Source: Microgenomates group bacterium
GTDB lineage: Bacteria; Patescibacteriota; Microgenomatia; UBA12405
DNA length: 64,000 nucleotides
Reading direction: 5' to 3'
Assembly: GCA_049303675.1 (NCBI GenBank)
Contig: JBAQNJ010000001.1
Span: 199,494 to 263,493 of the forward strand
Part shown: one piece after another, positions 313 to 52,585 of the stretch
How positions within the stretch are numbered: position 1 is the first letter of the stretch
How the letters are laid out: the number at the start of each line of letters is the position of its first letter
Translations under genes and position numbers: made by a program
Notes under the pieces: generated by a model
Told to the model about the DNA's origin: nothing
Databases searched by the model: none
What the model saw: only the letters and a program-made list of their open reading frames with translations

Positions 313-483
313 TAATATTACCCAACTTTAGACAGTTTCTCCTTTAATCATTTTTGGTTTGGTATTGGCCAAGCCAAACTGGACGTCCATTTGGACATCC
401 ATAGATTCAAGATTAGAAAACTGTCTACAATAACTCATACATTCAATATTAACACATTATAGGACTAAAACACAACTGCCAAA

Positions 484-1084
484 TTAAAACAAGTTATATT
501 TTAATCTGCCTCTCTTGCTATACACCATTGGTATGGCCATTTTATTATTCACCATTTCCTTATTTACTAGCTGCCCATTTTTGCATCCCTCGGGTTTATT
601 TTCAATAAATTCTCTCGACTCATTCCCACTTAAATGCATATAGTCGGCTGGCTTAAATTTTACCTCATTCGTTTCACAACCTACCCACACCCACGCCAAT
701 ATTCTTCCATATTTATCGTCCTGCCTTGCCCGCCATAGCTTTAGCGTCGGCGGGATATCTATCATATTCCAGCCATATTTGATCGTTTTCTATTATCTCC
801 TTCAATTTAGTCTTTGCCTCCATTTCTCCTGTTTTTCCTCTGTTTGGCGCATCCACCCCCAACAATCTTACAGTTTGTCCTGTTTGTAGTTTAAAAGTGT
901 CTCCGTCTTCAAATGTTTCTACTATCCCTATCCTCGGGAAAACATTTTCATCCGCATAGTAGTTATTTATTTTGTTTATCTTGCCCACACCGTACACAGT
1001 CGCAAAAATTATTCCAGGTATCAGTACCGCCGGCACCCCCTTTCTCGCCCAAGCTTTATAGTTATTGCCCGCTTCTTTTGTCAC
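484..1084 (-). pseudogene. Staphylococcal-nuclease (thermonuclease, SNase) family gene split into two overlapping ORFs (713..1084 and 484..765) by a frameshift within about 713-765.
   Basis: ORF1 contains GDTFKL...TVRLLGVDAPN and ORF2 contains QDDKYGRILAWVWV, which together reproduce the SNase core (TVRLLLVDTPE...DKYGRGLAYIY). The two halves are in different frames. ORF1 has an N-terminal TM anchor. Confidence 0.55.
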
Positions 1085-5244: not shown

Positions 5245-5731
5245 GTTTAAACGATTTTATTAATCTCTTCACATCACTCGGACTAATTTGGCTACAAATT
5301 TGTCGATATTTTATAAATGTATCGATACCTATTCCAGTTTGGCCTTTTAATGTAAACAAAGTAATGTGAGTTGGTGGGTATCTAAAATGATAACTCAACC
5401 TTTTATTGATTCCAGAAATTAACCATTTTAAACCTGAAAATCCAACTCTGACCACTATCGTTTTTTGATCATTTTCTGCTGCCAGCTTAAATGTATTTGT
5501 TGTCTTTCCAAGTTTAAGACTACATTTTTGTGCAAAATTTAGAATTTTTATTTGATCTTTTTTGGGTACATTCTCCAGACACAACAGACTTACGTGATAG
5601 TTACTTTTTGAATAAAACATATCACCTCCAACTGCAATTTTAGGAACAATATTCAAGTTAATGGGAAACATCAAATAGTCATATTTCAAATAGACACCAA
5701 TGTTATCGTTAATATTCCTCGAATAATCCAT
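5237..5731 (-). CDS. 2H phosphoesterase (LigT/ThpR-like RNA 2',3'-cyclic phosphodiesterase) family protein
   Basis: Two H-x-[ST]-x motifs (YHVSLL and PTHITLFTL) at the spacing typical of the 2H family. The size (164 aa) fits. Confidence 0.5.
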   Translation of the reverse strand: MDYSRNINDNIGVYLKYDYLMFPINLNIVPKIAVGGDMFYSKSNYHVSLLCLENVPKKDQIKILNFAQKCSLKLGKTTNTFKLAAENDQKTIVVRVGFSGLKWLISGINKRLSYHFRYPPTHITLFTLKGQTGIGIDTFIKYRQICSQISPSDVKRLIKSFKLV

Positions 5732-5733
5732 AA
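5710..5733. repeat. 24-nt exact direct repeat, copy 2
   Basis: Identical to 5218..5241. Confidence 0.7.
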
Positions 5734-5806
5734 AAGAATGATATCAAATGTATTTTAAAGTGATTCTCCCTTTTTCAAGGGGAGATGTCCGTAGGACAGA
5801 GGGGTT

Positions 5807-6373
5807 TTGATGTTAAAATACTTTATGAATCCTGATAAAAAACTCGCCGAATTTATGTCCAAGGTCAAAAATGCCGAAGCAGGCCACGAAATGGATTTAG
5901 CCTCGGGTGAAGACCTCTCTATGGCCGTCATGAATCTTATTGCCATCGAAGAACACATGTTTTTCAACGCCAACAAAACTGGCAAAGTCAAATATTTTGA
6001 ACTTTTGGCTGAAGCCAGAGAAATGCGCAAAGTCCTCATGAAAATGCTTATTCCCAAATACGAAGGCGAGGTCTGGTGCACCAGCAAACATTTACTCGCC
6101 GCCAGTATGCGAGTCATGGAAGTGGGGACCAAGTATCAGACCAAAGGTGATACCAAAACTGCCTATGATTTATTTAAAAAGTCTTATGATCTCTACAATC
6201 TTTTTTGGGCCATCAATCTCGGCATGACCGACAAGGAAAGCCCCCTTTCCTCAAAGGGGGTGTCAGCTTTAGCTGACGGGGGATTTGATAAACCAATCGA
6301 ACTCAAAAAATCCGACATTCTCGGTAAATTCAGTAGTGCCATTGGCAAAATCCTCGACTGTTGTCGTGAATAG
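5807..6373 (+). CDS. hypothetical protein (188 aa)
   Basis: ORF only. Confidence 0.45.
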   Translation: MMLKYFMNPDKKLAEFMSKVKNAEAGHEMDLASGEDLSMAVMNLIAIEEHMFFNANKTGKVKYFELLAEAREMRKVLMKMLIPKYEGEVWCTSKHLLAASMRVMEVGTKYQTKGDTKTAYDLFKKSYDLYNLFWAINLGMTDKESPLSSKGVSALADGGFDKPIELKKSDILGKFSSAIGKILDCCRE

Positions 6374-29304: not shown

Positions 29305-29643
29305 TTACTTTCCCAGCTTTTCTCTAATTTCACGGTTTAGCTTTTCACCCCAATCTTCTGTATACGTTTTGGTATTACGCAGTAGATCATTACAGAATCC
29401 AGTCACGTCCTTTCCCGTAATTTCCAGTACCTGTCTGCCATCCGCGACGCCTGCTTCAAATAAATCAATCAGTTCGTATTGCACCTTCAACATATCCATA
29501 CCATCCCCACCATCATGATTCCACATATAACTTTGAATTTTCTTGTATACAAATTGATAATCTTCTGGCATTGCATTGACCCGTGCCATCATCATTTTAT
29601 ATTCTCTTTTATCGTTAATTAGTTTTTTGAAAAAATCTAACAT
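29305..29643 (-). CDS. DUF1048-like protein (common partner of PadR regulators)
   Basis: Position and size fit. It is directly coupled to padR with a 1-nt gap. Confidence 0.45.
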   Translation of the reverse strand: MLDFFKKLINDKREYKMMMARVNAMPEDYQFVYKKIQSYMWNHDGGDGMDMLKVQYELIDLFEAGVADGRQVLEITGKDVTGFCNDLLRNTKTYTEDWGEKLNREIREKLGK

Positions 29644-29644
29644 C

Positions 29645-29968
29645 TTAAATTTCCTTCTTTAACTTATAAATTTTTTTGAAGACAAAATCACATTTCTCCC
29701 AAAATGTTTTTAGTTCTTCTCTCCCTTTTTTATTAAGAGAATAGAATTTACGACTCGGTCCCATATCAGATGATTTCTTTTCAATATTGACCAATTTGCT
29801 ATTTTCTAGCCTCAATAATATTGTATAAACCGTCCCTTCCACCACATCATCAAAACCTAATGCATTTAATTTCTTCGTAATTTCATACCCATAAATTTCT
29901 TTTTTGCTAATAATCTCTAAAACACATCCTTCGAGGATGCCTTTTAGCATTTCGGTTAGGTCATTCAT
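29645..29968 (-). CDS. PadR-family transcriptional regulator
   Basis: GYEITKKL...GTVYTILLRLENSKLV is a PadR winged helix. Confidence 0.8.
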   Translation of the reverse strand: MNDLTEMLKGILEGCVLEIISKKEIYGYEITKKLNALGFDDVVEGTVYTILLRLENSKLVNIEKKSSDMGPSRKFYSLNKKGREELKTFWEKCDFVFKKIYKLKKEI

Positions 29969-30126: not shown

Positions 30127-30561
30127 TTAACCAGCTAGGCCTTTTTCCCAAATTGACAAAAATTCGGGGTGAAATTTTTCACCACTATCTATCATTTTTT
30201 GAATATTAACCAAATCAAAAAATTCAATTTTACTCAATTCATCAGAGTTTATTTTAAAAGGACCGTTATGTTTAATTTTATAGATAGTTGCCTCTACCTC
30301 TCTGTTAATATTTGGTAGCCAGCCTGAGTATTGTAAATGCTCTTGACCGATAAGTACCACATCTCCCTCAATACCCAACTCTTCAAACAATTCTCTGTTG
30401 GCCGCCTCTATTTGACTCTCGCCTTCATCAATATGTCCACCAGCCGAAAAATCCCAATGGTCCGGAAATGATTTATCCCCAGAACTCCTCTTTTGTAAAG
30501 CTAGCTCGCCCTCATTGTTGTAGATAAGAATATCTACCACATAGTGGTGTTCAACAACCAT
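30127..30561 (-). CDS. NUDIX hydrolase
   Basis: Nudix box GGHIDEGESQIEAANRELFEELGI. Confidence 0.8.
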   Translation of the reverse strand: MVVEHHYVVDILIYNNEGELALQKRSSGDKSFPDHWDFSAGGHIDEGESQIEAANRELFEELGIEGDVVLIGQEHLQYSGWLPNINREVEATIYKIKHNGPFKINSDELSKIEFFDLVNIQKMIDSGEKFHPEFLSIWEKGLAG

Positions 30562-30630: not shown

Positions 30631-30798
30631 TTATTTATTTTTCTTGGCAAAGAAAAATAGGTATATTATTGCTCCACCAAACATAACCTTAGCCCACCAG
30701 CTCAGGTCAGCAACAAACATCCACAATCCAGAAAATAGACCCTTAAATCCTGCTACTACTAAGTCACCATAAAACTTAATCCAAGTCTCACCTGTCAT
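30631..30798 (-). CDS. unannotated 55-aa hydrophobic, Trp-rich peptide
   Basis: Hand translation: MTGETWIKFYGDLVVAGFKGLFSGLWMFVADLSWWAKVMFGGAIIYLFFFAKKNK. It is co-directional with its neighbours. Confidence 0.3.
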   Translation of the reverse strand: MTGETWIKFYGDLVVAGFKGLFSGLWMFVADLSWWAKVMFGGAIIYLFFFAKKNK

Positions 30799-30868
30799 TC
30801 AAATAATTCTACCATCAACAGAATTGTGTAATAGACAAGTCTGGAGCCTTTCTATCTCTATATAACAA

Positions 30869-31135
30869 TTATTTTATAAATAAAGCGCCAATCGACATTA
30901 AAAGTGAAACAATTGAGATTAATAAAGCCCAATTACTTCTTGCCTCAGCATTCTTCTTAAACCTCATTTCCCTCTCAATGTCTATCTCCTGTATTAGTGA
31001 CTCTTTTTCAACGTTATCTCTGCTTCCTTTCTCGCCATTATATAAGCCGCCTACGAATCCCAATCTGCGTTGTTGTAATTCTGTGTCAGACAGTTTTGTC
31101 AGGTCAGTTTTAAATTTATCGTCATGTACTACCAT
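30869..31135 (-). CDS. small tail-anchored membrane protein (88 aa)
   Basis: Charged N-terminal part and a C-terminal TM helix (WALLISIVSLLMSIGALFI). Confidence 0.4.
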   Translation of the reverse strand: MVVHDDKFKTDLTKLSDTELQQRRLGFVGGLYNGEKGSRDNVEKESLIQEIDIEREMRFKKNAEARSNWALLISIVSLLMSIGALFIK

Positions 31136-31287
31136 AGCAAAGTATACTACATAAAATGATCACACCATCCACACCTTGGAAGCCATACAGCAGATGTTGG
31201 AGTGAAAATTATTTCAGCGATAAAGACTAAATTTATTCTCCGCAATAAAGAATTGACGATCAAATCATGAATAATATTAAAACCAAC

Positions 31288-31884
31288 TTACTTTAATTTA
31301 CAATAAAGTTTACTTACATCATTAAACCAATCTTTATGATAGGTATTTAGATATTCTTCCATGTTTTTTAAAGCAACAAGCATTTTATTTAAAACATCTA
31401 TTTGATTAGAAACACCTTGGGTTTCGTTTGTATTATAAGCTGACAAATCATAATTTCCATAAGGATGAGCGAACTCGTTTCTTATTCTATTAACGGTATT
31501 TATACTTTCTTCTAACTTCTTCTTCATTTTTGGGTCATATTCATTAACATTTTTTAAAAACGTCTTTAAAATAGCATGAAATTCCATATTTGATATAAGT
31601 CGATGAACTTGAATTGAAACATCACCCATAATACTTCCTCTTAAATCTACATTATTGATAGTTTTATCTTCTTCAATTGTTTTAAAAGAGGCTCGTGTTA
31701 TCGAAGCAGCCATCCAGTCCTCAAGTCTTGCATGTGTATTAAAAACGAAGGTTCTTAATTTTGGAACGCCTTTCGGAAATTTTCCTTCCAGATGTGCACT
31801 AAGAACTTTCATTATTCTTTTTCTGTCTGCTACTTGAGTCATATTAAAGAGGTTTGTCCTGTGTAGAGTAACCTTTATTCTCAA
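31288..31884 (-). CDS. HEPN-domain (Rx4-6H) protein, possibly Abi-like RNase
   Basis: RIRNEFAHPYG contains the R-x4-H HEPN catalytic signature (R[ND]xxAH as in Abi_2). The alternative start MTQ at 31842 abuts the upstream gene stop. Confidence 0.5.
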   Translation of the reverse strand: MRIKVTLHRTNLFNMTQVADRKRIMKVLSAHLEGKFPKGVPKLRTFVFNTHARLEDWMAASITRASFKTIEEDKTINNVDLRGSIMGDVSIQVHRLISNMEFHAILKTFLKNVNEYDPKMKKKLEESINTVNRIRNEFAHPYGNYDLSAYNTNETQGVSNQIDVLNKMLVALKNMEEYLNTYHKDWFNDVSKLYCKLK

Positions 31885-32344
31885 TATATTTTAGAAAGTC
31901 CTCACCCAACTTTTCAATTTTGTAGTAATTACCCGAGACAGACAATAATTGATTATCTTGTAAATACTGTGTAATAAATGGCGTGATCCAGCCATCGTAT
32001 CTATCTGTTTTAGACTTTATTATTTGTTGGAAATAATTACTAACATAACCACAATCAAGACCGCGCCCCTTAATAGATCCTTCCCGTAATAAAACTAAAA
32101 ATCTTAATTGTGCACCAGTCATTTTTTCATAGAGATTTTCCATCAAATCATCATGTTTCCCCGTCTCTTTTTTGGTCTGATATTGTCCACTGAAGATAAT
32201 TTTAAAAAGATCTTTGAATGCCAGCTCCTGAAGGTTAGCTTTGTTTAATAGATTTGAAATATCACTTTTTAAAACAAAAAATACTACGATTACGACTACC
32301 GGCCAAGAAATAATTATTCGGAATATATCGATTAGATAGGACAT
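31844..32344 (-). CDS. N-terminal single-TM protein (166 aa) translationally coupled to the HEPN gene
   Basis: TM helix IISWPVVVIVVFFVL, then a soluble domain of unknown fold. Confidence 0.5.
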   Translation of the reverse strand: MSYLIDIFRIIISWPVVVIVVFFVLKSDISNLLNKANLQELAFKDLFKIIFSGQYQTKKETGKHDDLMENLYEKMTGAQLRFLVLLREGSIKGRGLDCGYVSNYFQQIIKSKTDRYDGWITPFITQYLQDNQLLSVSGNYYKIEKLGEDFLKYIENKGYSTQDKPL

Positions 32345-32509
32345 AGTGGATTATATCAACAAACAACGAAACACCCCATTACTGGCTATTTTAGCGGAAA
32401 ATGCCAGTATTTACGAATATTTACCAACAGGTTAGGGAAAACCCAGAATACTGAGCGGGTTGGGTAGAACTTTGAACGTTTGGCGGCGAACCATTGACGC
32501 AGTTAGAAC

Positions 32510-33118
32510 CTATTTTGCAGATAACGCCTTAGTAATTTCGCTTACCCCTTCCTCTGGTTTAGTTTGATCAAAAAGCAGTGTATTCCAACCCATTTCCCTT
32601 GGAATAACTAAATTTTTCTCTTGGTTATCCACAAACAAAATCTGCTCAGATCTTACCCTGTATTCGCTCTGGGCCAATTCATAAATTTCTCTATTTGGCT
32701 TTTTAATTCCCAGATTGCACGACAATAATATTTTTTGATATTTAATATCTGGTATTAAACCTGTTTTTATCATCTCCTCCCACATCCCCGAGTTAATATT
32801 TGAGATGACACCGATCTCTATCTTTTTAGCCATGTTATGGATAAATTTTCCTATCGGTTTGACTGGTTTGTAGTCTGATACCCACCATTTTACGAAATCA
32901 TAATCTTCCGCGCTTTTAAGATGAAAATAATCTACGCATTTTCTCCAAAACTCCCCGGTTTTAATTTTTCCATTAATCAAGTCATGTTTATGCTGGATAT
33001 AAAAAGCTAAAAAATCATCAAAATCTAAATTAAAATCTTTACAAACCTTTTGAAAATAATGACCACAATCCACTATGACATCGCCAATATCAAAGTAAAT
33101 AAGCTTAATCATGCGCAA
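32510..33118 (-). CDS. HAD-superfamily hydrolase
   Basis: Motif I YFDIGDVIV, motif II SNINSG, motif III K (GIKKP), motif IV FVDNQEKN. Confidence 0.75.
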   Translation of the reverse strand: MRMIKLIYFDIGDVIVDCGHYFQKVCKDFNLDFDDFLAFYIQHKHDLINGKIKTGEFWRKCVDYFHLKSAEDYDFVKWWVSDYKPVKPIGKFIHNMAKKIEIGVISNINSGMWEEMIKTGLIPDIKYQKILLSCNLGIKKPNREIYELAQSEYRVRSEQILFVDNQEKNLVIPREMGWNTLLFDQTKPEEGVSEITKALSAK

Positions 33119-33135
33119 TTATACATTGTCACGAC

Positions 33136-33220
33136 ATTGGCGGAGGAGGCGAGATTCGAACTCGCGAGTCCTTGCGAACGCGCGCTTTCCAAGCGCGTGC
33201 CATACCACTAGGCGACTCCT
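33136..33220 (-). tRNA. tRNA-Ser (anticodon GGA), long variable arm, CCA encoded
   Basis: Folded by hand. Acceptor GGAGGAG/CTCCTCC. Anticodon stem CGCGC/GCGCG with loop TTGGAAA. T-loop GTTCGAATC. Confidence 0.85.
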
Positions 33221-33457
33221 CCAAACTGTTTGTTAAGCCATACCATTACCTTGCCAATCCGAAGCCTAGGCGAAGGATGGGGCGATTTGCCTTGCCAAAG
33301 ATTTAGCGAAGGCAGGCTCCTCCATATACAGAATGTTCCTATTATCTCATTTAGTCTCGCCAAATCCAACTTTATGTTTACTAAAGTCTCCCTTGTTTAC
33401 CCGACTTTAGAGGGTTAAAGGCGTGTGGTCCCAGAAGTGGGAGAGATTTAGAGGGAT

Positions 33458-33943
33458 TTACCGAGCGGGGGATTTTATCCCCATTCTCCCCGCTACTTTT
33501 TTCAGCAACAACTTCTCGCTCTCAAAAGCTATTTTATGTAGAGCCTCCTCATAGCTCACCCACACCCGATCCAATACCACCTCACTATCATAATATTTCA
33601 AGTTACTCTCTCCCACATATTCCATCAAAAAGAAGGTTACTTTTTTGATTATTTTTTTCTTTTTCAATTTATCCCAAATCACATAATCATTGGATCCTAC
33701 CTTGGTAATTACCTTACTTTTTATCCGCCCTTCCTCTTCCACCTCGCGAGTAGCTGTTTGTTTTAGCACCTCTCCCTCCTTGATATGACCCTTGGGAAAC
33801 TTGAAAATAGTTTTGTGTCGCTTGTTGGCAAAGGTTTTGATTAGCAAAAACAGCAATTTATCACCCTCTTTTTTATAGACAATTCCCCCCGCCGACCTCT
33901 CATCATAATACAAATTTTCGCTTTCGCTGATTATTTTATCCAC
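33458..33943 (-). CDS. NUDIX hydrolase
   Basis: Nudix box GHIKEGEVLKQTATREVEEEGRI. Confidence 0.8.
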   Translation of the reverse strand: MDKIISESENLYYDERSAGGIVYKKEGDKLLFLLIKTFANKRHKTIFKFPKGHIKEGEVLKQTATREVEEEGRIKSKVITKVGSNDYVIWDKLKKKKIIKKVTFFLMEYVGESNLKYYDSEVVLDRVWVSYEEALHKIAFESEKLLLKKVAGRMGIKSPAR

Positions 33944-40093: not shown

Positions 40094-40345
40094 TTATACC
40101 TTGTCACTCCATTTAATATGCCTTTTTATAAATTCTCTACCAGAACCTGTTTTCATATATTTTTCAAATCGAAAGGCAACTTTTTCATCAGTGAAAGCAA
40201 AATATGCAATTAGTTTCCAAGGTCTTAGATTTTTTGTTGCTGGAACAAATCCCTTATTGTGTCTTTGAAATCTATCTTTCAAATCATTAGTACAACCAAC
40301 ATAAGGAATTTTGTCTTTGTTTTCTAGAAAGTAAACATAAAACAC
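40094..40345 (-). CDS. GIY-YIG nuclease superfamily protein (UPF0213/YhbQ-like)
   Basis: YVYFLENKDKIPYVGCTNDLKDRFQRHN contains GIY...YVG plus the conserved R and N. Confidence 0.75.
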   Translation of the reverse strand: MFYVYFLENKDKIPYVGCTNDLKDRFQRHNKGFVPATKNLRPWKLIAYFAFTDEKVAFRFEKYMKTGSGREFIKRHIKWSDKV

Positions 40346-51320: not shown

Positions 51321-51781
51321 TTTTACTATTATAAGGCAATTGTTTCGGTTTTGTAATCATAATTTAGAGGTATGATTAGTTATGAACATATCTACATGGT
51401 TACCTACACTGGCAGTTTTAGTCGTTGTATTTGGAATCAAATTTATGTAGATTTACTGGAAAAAAGACCAGTAGATACAAGTAAATTACCATTTATTAAA
51501 AAAGTATATACTCTTACCAACTCCGAAAAATATTTTTTTCGATTTCTTGAGGAATTGTCGATAGTTAAAGAAAATTTTTATGTCTTTCCAATCTTTCTTT
51601 CAAATTATCACTACATCCTATGTATGGATGATTATTAATACATCTTAAAACATAAACGTACTGCACAAGTCCATTTTACATCAAAGCGGACATTGTCCGC
51701 CGAAGCGAAAGCAACGAGACAATGGTATAGGATGAAGAGTTAGAAAACAACAGGCCTACGTTTTACTTCGGCCTGCGAAGG

Positions 51782-51864
51782 CGGAAGGGGAGGGAGTCGA
51801 ACCCTCATGCCATTTCTGACGCGGGTTTAGCAAACCCGTGGCTTACCATTCGCCGCACCCTTCC
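51782..51864 (-). tRNA. tRNA-Ser (anticodon GCT), long variable arm
   Basis: Acceptor GGAAGGG/CCCTTCC. Anticodon stem CGGGT/ACCCG with loop TTGCTAA. T-arm GAGGG-TTCGACT-CCCTC. Confidence 0.8.
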
Positions 51865-52027: not shown

Positions 52028-52585
52028 ATGATATTGATGACAGACGCAAAAAAGAAGCTTGACCCAATCGATTCCCAGATTGAAGATGTCAATGAAGAGA
52101 AGGTCTTGTTTGAATGGATAGCCCCCGAACGTGCTTTTCAACGCCGCGAAAAAGATTTTTGGATTACTGCCGTAGCCATTTTAGTACTAGTAGCTGTTAT
52201 TTTTATATTTATCAAAGAGTTTTTCTTGGTCATCGCCCTCGGCTCACTCTTGTTTTTATTCTATGTCCTATCAACTGTTCCACCGGAGAATATCAAATAT
52301 AAGATTACCAACCGAGGGGTTTATTTTGGTGAAGCCCATTATTATTGGGACACTTTGGAAAAATTTTGGTTCCAGAAAAATTTGAGTACAGAAATGATTC
52401 ATTTTGGCACTATTCTCAAGTTTCCTCGGACAGTTTCACTGGTCATCAAAGCCGCCGATAAAGAAAAATTGCAGGAAATTGTCGTTAAACTAATTCCCCT
52501 TGTAGAGAATCCACCCAATTCGGTCGATAAAATTACCAACTGGTTTTCCGCCCGTTTGCCACTAGAAGATAGGCAGAAGACTTAG
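52028..52585 (+). CDS. hypothetical 2-TM membrane protein
   Basis: Two adjacent hydrophobic helices. ORF only. Confidence 0.45.
   Translation: MILMTDAKKKLDPIDSQIEDVNEEKVLFEWIAPERAFQRREKDFWITAVAILVLVAVIFIFIKEFFLVIALGSLLFLFYVLSTVPPENIKYKITNRGVYFGEAHYYWDTLEKFWFQKNLSTEMIHFGTILKFPRTVSLVIKAADKEKLQEIVVKLIPLVENPPNSVDKITNWFSARLPLEDRQKT

Follow-up and report, generated by a model that had tools for sequence, protein, structure and literature searches.

Gene content of the locus

We analysed a 64,000-nucleotide stretch of DNA, hereafter the window, cut from a 998-kb contig of a metagenome-assembled genome of a Microgenomates group bacterium, and within it four co-directional minus-strand open reading frames (ORFs) situated between a NUDIX gene (30127..30561) and a HAD hydrolase gene (32510..33118; Pfam assignment), beyond which lies a tRNA-Ser(GGA) gene (33138..33222). 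NCBI labels all four, WAV41_01655 to WAV41_01670, as hypothetical proteins. These ORFs and the tRNA gene lie as an earlier note on this DNA had described them, and that note took the four for a single candidate defence or toxin module. Comparison with related loci leads to a smaller unit. The real unit is a two-gene operon, at about 31288-32486 of the minus strand, made of a gene for a membrane-anchored, predicted winged-helix protein and a gene for a HEPN-like protein. The latter most likely represents a new, unannotated family of HEPN type with an undescribed partner, and the pair, set in a decayed tRNA/recombinase locus, is plausible as a toxin or anti-phage module. The features of the operon are as follows.

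31844..32344, minus strand: gene 1, the winged-helix gene (WAV41_01655), 166 aa, with a transmembrane (TM) helix, a linker and a predicted winged-helix domain
31288..31842, minus strand: gene 2, the HEPN-like gene (WAV41_01660), 184 aa, all-alpha
31465..31482, minus strand: predicted Rx4H catalytic motif, codons R121-N-E-F-A-H126, read from the sequence; R and H invariant in the alignment
32345..32480, minus strand: conserved upstream spacer, with 74-84% nucleotide identity to the spacers of relatives
32350..32358, minus strand: extended -10 box TGATATAAT, ending 5 nt ahead of the gene 1 ATG

Two coupled genes form the conserved unit

A blastn comparison of positions 29-34.5 kb of the window with the related loci that we fetched (L numbers below) delimits this unit closely. 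The block 31289-32437 matches L017, L018 and L019 at 84% and covers exactly both genes plus 93 bp upstream; the block 31843-32486 matches L016, L010-12 and L004 at 74-78% and covers the winged-helix gene and the upstream spacer only. Between 24 and 40 kb of the window, these comparisons showed no shared segment beyond the two genes and the spacer. The ratio of non-synonymous to synonymous substitution rates (dN/dS) is 0.03-0.06 in the winged-helix gene and 0.07-0.13 in the HEPN-like gene; both are thus under purifying selection and can be taken as real genes. The flanks have a GC content of about 0.36, which drops to 0.28 across the HEPN-like gene.

The two genes abut, as the earlier note had seen, but neither the overlap that it considered nor the 198-aa length that it gave to the second product can be kept: that longer ORF (31288..31884) begins at TTG 31884, and the start in all homologs and in the NCBI model is the ATG at 31842, which gives 184 aa. 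This ATG lies 1 nt past the stop codon of gene 1 (TAA-T-ATG), a spacing kept in the window, L002 and L017, and the HEPN-like gene has no visible promoter or Shine-Dalgarno sequence of its own. Such an arrangement is that of a co-translated pair.

Upstream of gene 1, the conserved spacer corresponds to the one that separates tRNA-Ser(GCT) from the orthologous gene in L016, L004, L010-12 and L017, and the spacer of L022 also joins the alignment. Within it, TTGATATAATC is kept in L016, L004, L022 and L010, as is the extended -10 box; the variant of L017 reads TTGTTATAATC, with TGTTATAAT in place of the box. The position of the box, 5 nt from the ATG, suggests a putative promoter from which a leaderless transcript of the two-gene operon would start. 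A generic promoter and terminator scan around the module gave nothing above chance. TATAAT-like boxes are found 4-8 nt ahead of several starts in the window, that of the winged-helix gene as well as those upstream of 31135, 30798 and 30561, and they suggest that leaderless transcripts occur in this organism.

The HEPN-like protein

The family to which the 184-aa protein belongs is tiny, with about 30 sequences, all metagenomic, among some 15 billion proteins. Seven relatives came from a search of 5.8 billion cluster representatives, 21 from 1.84 billion representatives scanned exhaustively with a HMMER profile, and about ten more from a wider profile; no relative was found in 185,579 GTDB species genomes. 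The GTDB representatives also yielded no close ortholog of the HAD gene by which synteny could be followed. Phage records and IMG/VR gave no relatives of either the HEPN-like or the winged-helix protein, and for this reason a phage origin is unsupported.

The motif RIRNEFAHP reported in the earlier note is indeed present, with R121 encoded at 31480-31482 and H126 at 31465-31467. In an alignment of 22 sequences that share 18-72% identity with the window protein, no columns are invariant other than H37, N118, R121, F124 and H126, so that the motif of the family may be written VNxxRxEFAHP; R121 and H126 stay invariant down to about 20% identity, and RNEFAH is found in all seven locus-encoded members. 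The polar N122 directly follows R121 in the window protein and in every close homolog, and the residue at this place is N, I or V in remote members (RIEFAH, RVEFAH). At one locus (L014, 690..1759), the remote member P0047 is directly followed by a 167-aa protein with an Rx4H motif of its own (IRNDFEH), and these may be tandem HEPN-type genes.

An AlphaFold2 (AF2) model built from the 22-sequence alignment is all-alpha, with a mean predicted local distance difference test score (pLDDT) of 90.8 and a predicted template-modelling score (pTM) of 0.81. R121 and H126 are located at the C-terminal end of helix 104-125, running into the next loop; a two-helix hairpin (65-84, 88-97) is inserted between the long helix 26-57 and helix 104-125, and a further long helix, 141-168 (helix 4), follows the motif. 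In HEPN domains, the motif is placed by definition at the end of core helix 3 and the start of the loop to helix 4, inserts occur between helices 2 and 3, and a polar N, D or H follows the R (Anantharaman et al. 2013, PMC3710099). The predicted structure agrees with this description in motif position, helix 2-3 insert and polar residue after R.

Profile searches point in the same direction. PF18735 (HEPN_RiboL-PSP) is matched by 9 of 32 members, every time below its gathering score (28.4 bits); the best match is that of P0047 (E=3.9e-5, 24.1 bits, residues 8-167 against model positions 5-187 of 191), and the window protein itself scores 16 bits (E=0.01). Minor matches among members fall on Csm6_HEPN, HEPN_Apea, HEPN_Swt1, Abi_2 and Ribonuc_2-5A, a KEN-type RNase family. 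The window protein also weakly matches the C-terminal HEPN region of Cas13b in PADLOC (E=4e-4) and the C-terminal HEPN of Csm6 in NCBIfam (E=1e-3), a likeness confined to the HEPN end, and both matches fall on the same stretch; a weak match to PD-T4-2_B of PADLOC (E=5e-3) was seen as well. The HEPN call of the earlier note is thus supported, though not proven, by an Rx4H motif invariant in 22 sequences, by its position on helix 3 and by sub-threshold matches to PF18735, Cas13b and Csm6. The Abi_2/AbiD-F type that it had assigned finds no support: the window protein has no match to Abi_2 (PF07751), and one remote member (P0065) matches it at E=0.034, with 14.9 bits for a cutoff of 25.6. Most likely, the 184-aa protein and its relatives make up a new HEPN-superfamily family, closest to RiboL-PSP-HEPN and outside every curated one.

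The membrane-anchored protein with a predicted winged helix

The product of gene 1 begins with a single TM segment at residues ~7-25 (Kyte-Doolittle maximum over 19 residues, 2.74), and 27 homologs of it were found. In its AF2 model, a low-confidence linker (residues 35-60) leads to a C-terminal domain (residues ~61-160, pLDDT 83-95) whose topology, H-b-H-H-hairpin-H, fits a winged helix. The top Foldseek matches of this model are all winged-helix domains (MUS81 WH, FOXN1, CggR, MotA, LmrR/PadR, MarR), albeit weak (E 0.2-1), with template-modelling scores on the target of 0.4-0.6; no sequence-family match was found in the profile libraries searched. The alignment of homologs shows 30 invariant columns in the domain.

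Proteins of 223-291 aa contain the same domain preceded by other N-terminal parts. These N-terminal domains are of HNH type, with a PADLOC match to PDC-M68A at 5.7e-26 and further matches to CBASS HNH effectors (9e-16), SAVED_HNH (8e-15) and Shedu SduA (1.4e-11); that of P0028 matches the ZorE HNH at 9e-7. One C-terminal domain joined in some proteins to a membrane helix and in others to a defence-type HNH nuclease is the domain-swap pattern of defence effectors, and by analogy the winged-helix domain may act as a sensor. Distant winged-helix homologs are found just downstream of tRNA-Gln(CTG), beside classical HEPN-type genes, in L005 (4160..6492) and L031 (248..2151). In L005, a PF05168 HEPN gene (E=1e-9) lies two genes upstream of the homolog; in L031, an HNH-winged-helix gene is directly followed by a 131-aa PDC-M28A/HEPN-like gene.

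A decayed tRNA-Ser(GCT) and serine recombinase locus

On both sides of the operon, the window keeps traces of a locus that is better preserved in relatives.

31175..31267, plus strand: remnant of 31 codons of the C-terminus of a large serine recombinase, found by tblastn, convergent to the operon
32481..32500, minus strand: decayed fragment of the tRNA-Ser(GCT) 3' end (GCGTCAATGGTTCG..CCGCCA), tentatively placed by alignment to L016, L004, L022 and L010

In L004, L016 and L022, the tRNA-Ser(GCT) gene lies directly upstream of the winged-helix gene, which is followed by a convergent large serine recombinase gene (Resolvase, Recombinase and Zn_ribbon_recom domains) with a 4-bp overlap. L002 has the HEPN-like gene in between these two. 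The four recombinases are mutually 83-94% identical, and the remnant in the window matches their last ~30 residues with 55-65% identity (E 1e-5 to 8e-4); the DNA alignment of the junction, just beyond the HEPN-like stop codon, agrees with it. Shorter remnants of the end of the same recombinase lie behind the winged-helix gene in L010 and L023.

On the other side, homology reaches the last 6 nt of tRNA-Ser(GCT) (CCGCCA, 32481-32486), and matches further in are patchy; the fragment lies right after the HAD stop codon. The tRNA ancestrally linked to the operon is tRNA-Ser(GCT) and not the tRNA-Ser(GGA) to which the earlier note had tied it. The intact tRNA-Ser(GCT) gene of the window is found 19 kb from the fragment, at 51780..51864 on the minus strand, beside tRNA-Arg(GCG), tRNA-Ser(CGA) and a gene for a 185-aa TM protein (52028..52585), the latter being a neighbour of the winged-helix gene in relatives. 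We considered these 19 kb as an inserted island and discarded the idea: judged from the ORF translations, the interval holds pheS/pheT, relA/spoT and an ABC-F gene, all core genes by appearance. Because of this apparent core content, the arrangement is a rearrangement with respect to L016 and L023 and not an island. A flanking-repeat search around the module found no direct repeats or element ends above chance, and no att repeats were defined.

In relatives the locus has the flavour of a defence island. KAP NTPase, ParB-methylase and SNF2/PLD genes are found nearby in L004, and restriction-modification genes near remote HEPN-like members. In L023, a DUF6602 protein (5591..6307) encoded 90 bp downstream of the winged-helix gene matches PADLOC PD_DExK (2.8e-25) and the NucC nuclease (6.4e-15); no cyclase was seen in the fetched flanks of this NucC-like gene. 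The pair is accessory cargo of this variable locus, which in the window has been rearranged and has lost its recombinase by deletion.

The winged-helix gene is separated from tRNA-Ser(GCT) by a small GIY-YIG gene in L017 and L023. Such small GIY-YIG proteins (~80-120 aa) are encoded beside tRNA genes and winged-helix or HEPN-like genes at L017 153..428, L023 4540..4848 and L001 466..831, and the window encodes a further one of the same tRNA-adjacent kind at 40094..40345 (minus strand).

Occurrence of the pair, proposed function and alternatives

The pair is present in the window and in L002, L017-20, L025 and L027, the last with a winged-helix protein of only 47% identity; three further short contigs also appear to hold it. 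In L004, L016 and L022, the orthologous winged-helix gene is followed by the recombinase with no HEPN-like gene in between. The HEPN-like gene is thus variably present, and the finding that would have refuted the earlier note, a syntenic core in all relatives, does not apply to it. The winged-helix protein of L025 shares 93-96% identity with those of the window and L017, but the HEPN-like fragment only 57%, and we therefore consider that the pairing was re-formed with different alleles; here (370..935) the HEPN-like gene is broken after ~67 codons, with an IS3-like transposase ORF behind it. In L003, a 120-aa gene ahead of the HEPN-like gene was examined as a divergent winged-helix homolog and rejected, with no match to the hidden Markov model and a poor alignment.

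It is tempting to hypothesize that the conserved extended -10 promoter drives a leaderless two-gene mRNA, on which gene 2 would be translated by termination-reinitiation coupled to gene 1. The HEPN-like protein would be a metal-independent RNase whose active site combines R121 and H126 and, as in other HEPN enzymes, probably spans the two subunits of a dimer. It may serve as the growth-arresting effector in a conflict module, either of abortive-infection or of toxin type. Expressed together with it, the TM-winged-helix protein would act as its partner, be it as regulator, sensor, membrane tether or neutraliser. A leaderless, coupled operon of this kind, with a HEPN RNase effector and a membrane winged-helix partner whose functions are predicted, is the reading that we favour, at about even odds. 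For the toxin or defence role, it draws on context, namely the HNH fusions, the NucC-like nuclease, the restriction-modification genes and the copy disrupted by an insertion sequence (IS).

Several observations weigh against it. About 12 distinct winged-helix loci have no HEPN-like neighbour, the HEPN-like gene occurs without a winged-helix partner in L001, L003, L014, L033 and L035, and the remote HEPN-like members share no conserved alternative partner. We know of no antitoxin type that consists of a membrane-anchored winged-helix protein. With regard to the HEPN assignment, no curated HEPN model was reached at threshold (24.1 bits at best, against 28.4), no family of PADLOC, NCBIfam or PHROG fits the protein, PDB sequences searched by profile gave nothing for this family nor for the winged-helix family, and Foldseek searches of the model against PDB and BFVD returned generic helical bundles only, without any HEPN structure.

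The same patchy occurrence leads to an alternative which we hold to be rather unlikely, though it deserves attention: the HEPN-like gene would be autonomous cargo, either an Abi-like RNase or a selfish toxin-like gene, that has repeatedly landed in an insertion hot spot just past the stop codon of the winged-helix gene, itself conserved in the lineage, the two proteins not cooperating. The winged-helix protein may then have a role of its own, for example one tied to the neighbouring serine recombinase. Besides the many loci where each gene is found without the other, this alternative draws on the collinearity of winged-helix gene, spacer and tRNA-Ser(GCT) in five relatives, where only the downstream part varies, on the stronger constraint upon the winged-helix gene, on the mutual identity of the recombinases beside it and on the incongruent alleles of L025. 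Between the window and L017, moreover, the winged-helix gene has a dS of 1.37 and the HEPN-like gene one of 0.66, a gap of about two-fold between adjacent genes that hints at separate histories or recombination. Cargo that lands independently fits poorly, however, with a start codon placed 1 nt past the upstream stop in three lineages and devoid of visible initiation signals of its own, with differing HEPN-like alleles that recur behind the same gene even when the partner is as divergent as in L027, and with the HEPN-type neighbours of the distant winged-helix homologs in L005 and L031.

The favoured reading, a coupled conflict module, admits a broader version that is speculative and, in our opinion, improbable in its full extent: the winged-helix domain would be a new sensor or adaptor of an undescribed defence family of the candidate phyla radiation (CPR) with interchangeable killing parts, a TM helix or HNH domain in cis and a coupled HEPN RNase in trans, housed in a serine-recombinase hot spot by tRNA-Ser(GCT).

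Still less probable is the possibility that the 184-aa protein is not an RNase, that its N..R..F.H patch binds a ligand, a protein or nucleic acid, as in a regulator or an immunity protein, and that the likeness to HEPN is superficial. The absence of a HEPN structure among the Foldseek matches and of any profile match at a curated threshold speaks for it, and so do the non-polar residues after R in remote members; some HEPN-fold families are non-catalytic (PMC3710099). Against it stand the invariant R and H, with their canonical four-residue spacing and structural position, and the fact that HEPN regions are the one consistent indication given independently by Pfam, PADLOC and NCBIfam.

The two small ORFs downstream of the operon are the following.

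30869..31135, minus strand: 88-aa tail-anchored ORF (WAV41_01665), a singleton adjacent to the operon, of doubtful membership in the module
30631..30798, minus strand: 55-aa Trp/Gly-rich hydrophobic ORF (WAV41_01670), likewise an adjacent singleton of doubtful membership in the module

The membrane segments predicted in the earlier note for the 166-aa and 88-aa proteins were confirmed, the latter at residues 69-87 (Kyte-Doolittle maximum 2.41), but the 55-aa ORF is only moderately hydrophobic (maximum 1.52). Both are singleton clusters among the some 15 billion proteins, and neither has a counterpart in the 32 related loci compared, a set to which five later-fetched loci do not belong. The 88-aa ORF has no family match in the profile libraries, PHROG included, and the matches of the 55-aa ORF are all non-significant (PHROG holin, E=0.018; Pfam TMEM107, E=0.092); for none of the four proteins did the PHROGs give anything significant. 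Because the recombinase remnant adjoins the HEPN-like stop codon, the small ORFs sit where the body of the recombinase used to be. That all four small genes form one defence or toxin cassette inserted beside tRNA-Ser(GGA), as their shared direction, the gaps of 70-152 bp among them, the hydrophobic segments of the two extra ORFs and the weak holin match might suggest, is very improbable, given that homology covers 31289..32486 only and that the DNA shared with relatives ends exactly at the HEPN-like stop codon and the recombinase remnant, that the two singletons lie beyond this pseudogene fragment at the position of the recombinase body in L002, that the downstream genes differ in every relative (259-aa protein, recombinase, NucC-like nuclease, TetR) and that the tRNA linked in these relatives is Ser(GCT).

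Comparison with known systems

A PADLOC search (PADLOC-DB 2.0) gave no significant system-component match for any of the four proteins, and weak ones for the HEPN-like protein only. The closest likeness of the HEPN-like protein is to RiboL-PSP-HEPN (PF18735), with which it shares a length of ~170-190 aa, an all-alpha fold, an Rx4H motif with N after R near the C-terminal third and, for several members, an alignment over nearly the full length of the model. It differs from this family by scores below the gathering threshold, by the lack of an L-PSP fusion or neighbour and by a membership of ~30 metagenomic sequences only.

Abi_2/AbiD-AbiF, AbiV, AbiU2 and AbiJ are small stand-alone HEPN-type proteins with an R[N/D/H]xxxH motif, encoded by patchy accessory genes near mobile or defence genes. 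The window protein resembles them in size, in standing alone, in its R[N/D/H]xxxH motif and in its patchy distribution near mobile-element and defence genes; unlike them, it is without an Abi_2 match and its gene is co-translated with that of a membrane winged-helix partner. The HEPN-MNT (type VII) and other HEPN toxin-antitoxin systems share with the pair a two-gene operon layout, with a small first gene that directly adjoins the HEPN gene, the presumed toxin. Here, however, the upstream protein is a TM helix with a winged helix in place of a minimal nucleotidyltransferase (NTase), no NTase signature being present in the upstream gene or among the flanking genes scanned, and both genes also occur alone, which is unusual for an addictive pair.

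With the HNH-SAVED (Cap5) and TM-SAVED effectors of CBASS, the winged-helix family shares a constant C-terminal domain placed behind a TM helix or HNH domains (matches at E 1e-6 to 6e-26). The constant domain is here a winged helix and not SAVED or CARF, neither of which was matched by either protein of the pair, and there is a single TM helix only; no cyclase or other signal generator was seen among nine flanking proteins scanned. Finally, the order found in relatives, tRNA-Ser(GCT), an optional GIY-YIG gene, the winged-helix gene, an optional HEPN-like gene and a convergent recombinase, recalls tRNA-adjacent recombinase hot spots, as do the KAP NTPase, ParB-methylase, SNF2/PLD or NucC-like genes nearby. 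The window departs from such hot spots in that its recombinase is down to 31 codons and that 19 kb of apparent core genes come before the intact tRNA-Ser(GCT).

Few defence systems have been recognised in CPR bacteria, whose genomes are tiny, and candidate conflict modules in them are for this reason of interest. The present analysis defines two uncharacterised families, a rare stand-alone HEPN-like family and a winged-helix domain joined to a TM helix or to a defence-type HNH, as well as the variable locus where they meet. If an RNase were indeed controlled by a membrane winged-helix partner, this would add a new type of partner to the biology of HEPN toxins and Abi proteins, in the form of a testable two-gene system. 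Otherwise, the locus still gains a cleaner annotation: one start codon is corrected, a recombinase pseudogene and a tRNA fragment are added, and two small ORFs are marked as doubtful.

Other genes of the region

Two further features of the surroundings are worth recording. A PadR regulator gene and a DUF1048 gene form an abutting pair nearby downstream (29305..29968, minus strand). NUDIX hydrolase genes are found on both sides of the region, at 30127..30561 and at 33458..33943 (minus strand), and in L026 an NrtR-like NUDIX regulator comes after the winged-helix gene.

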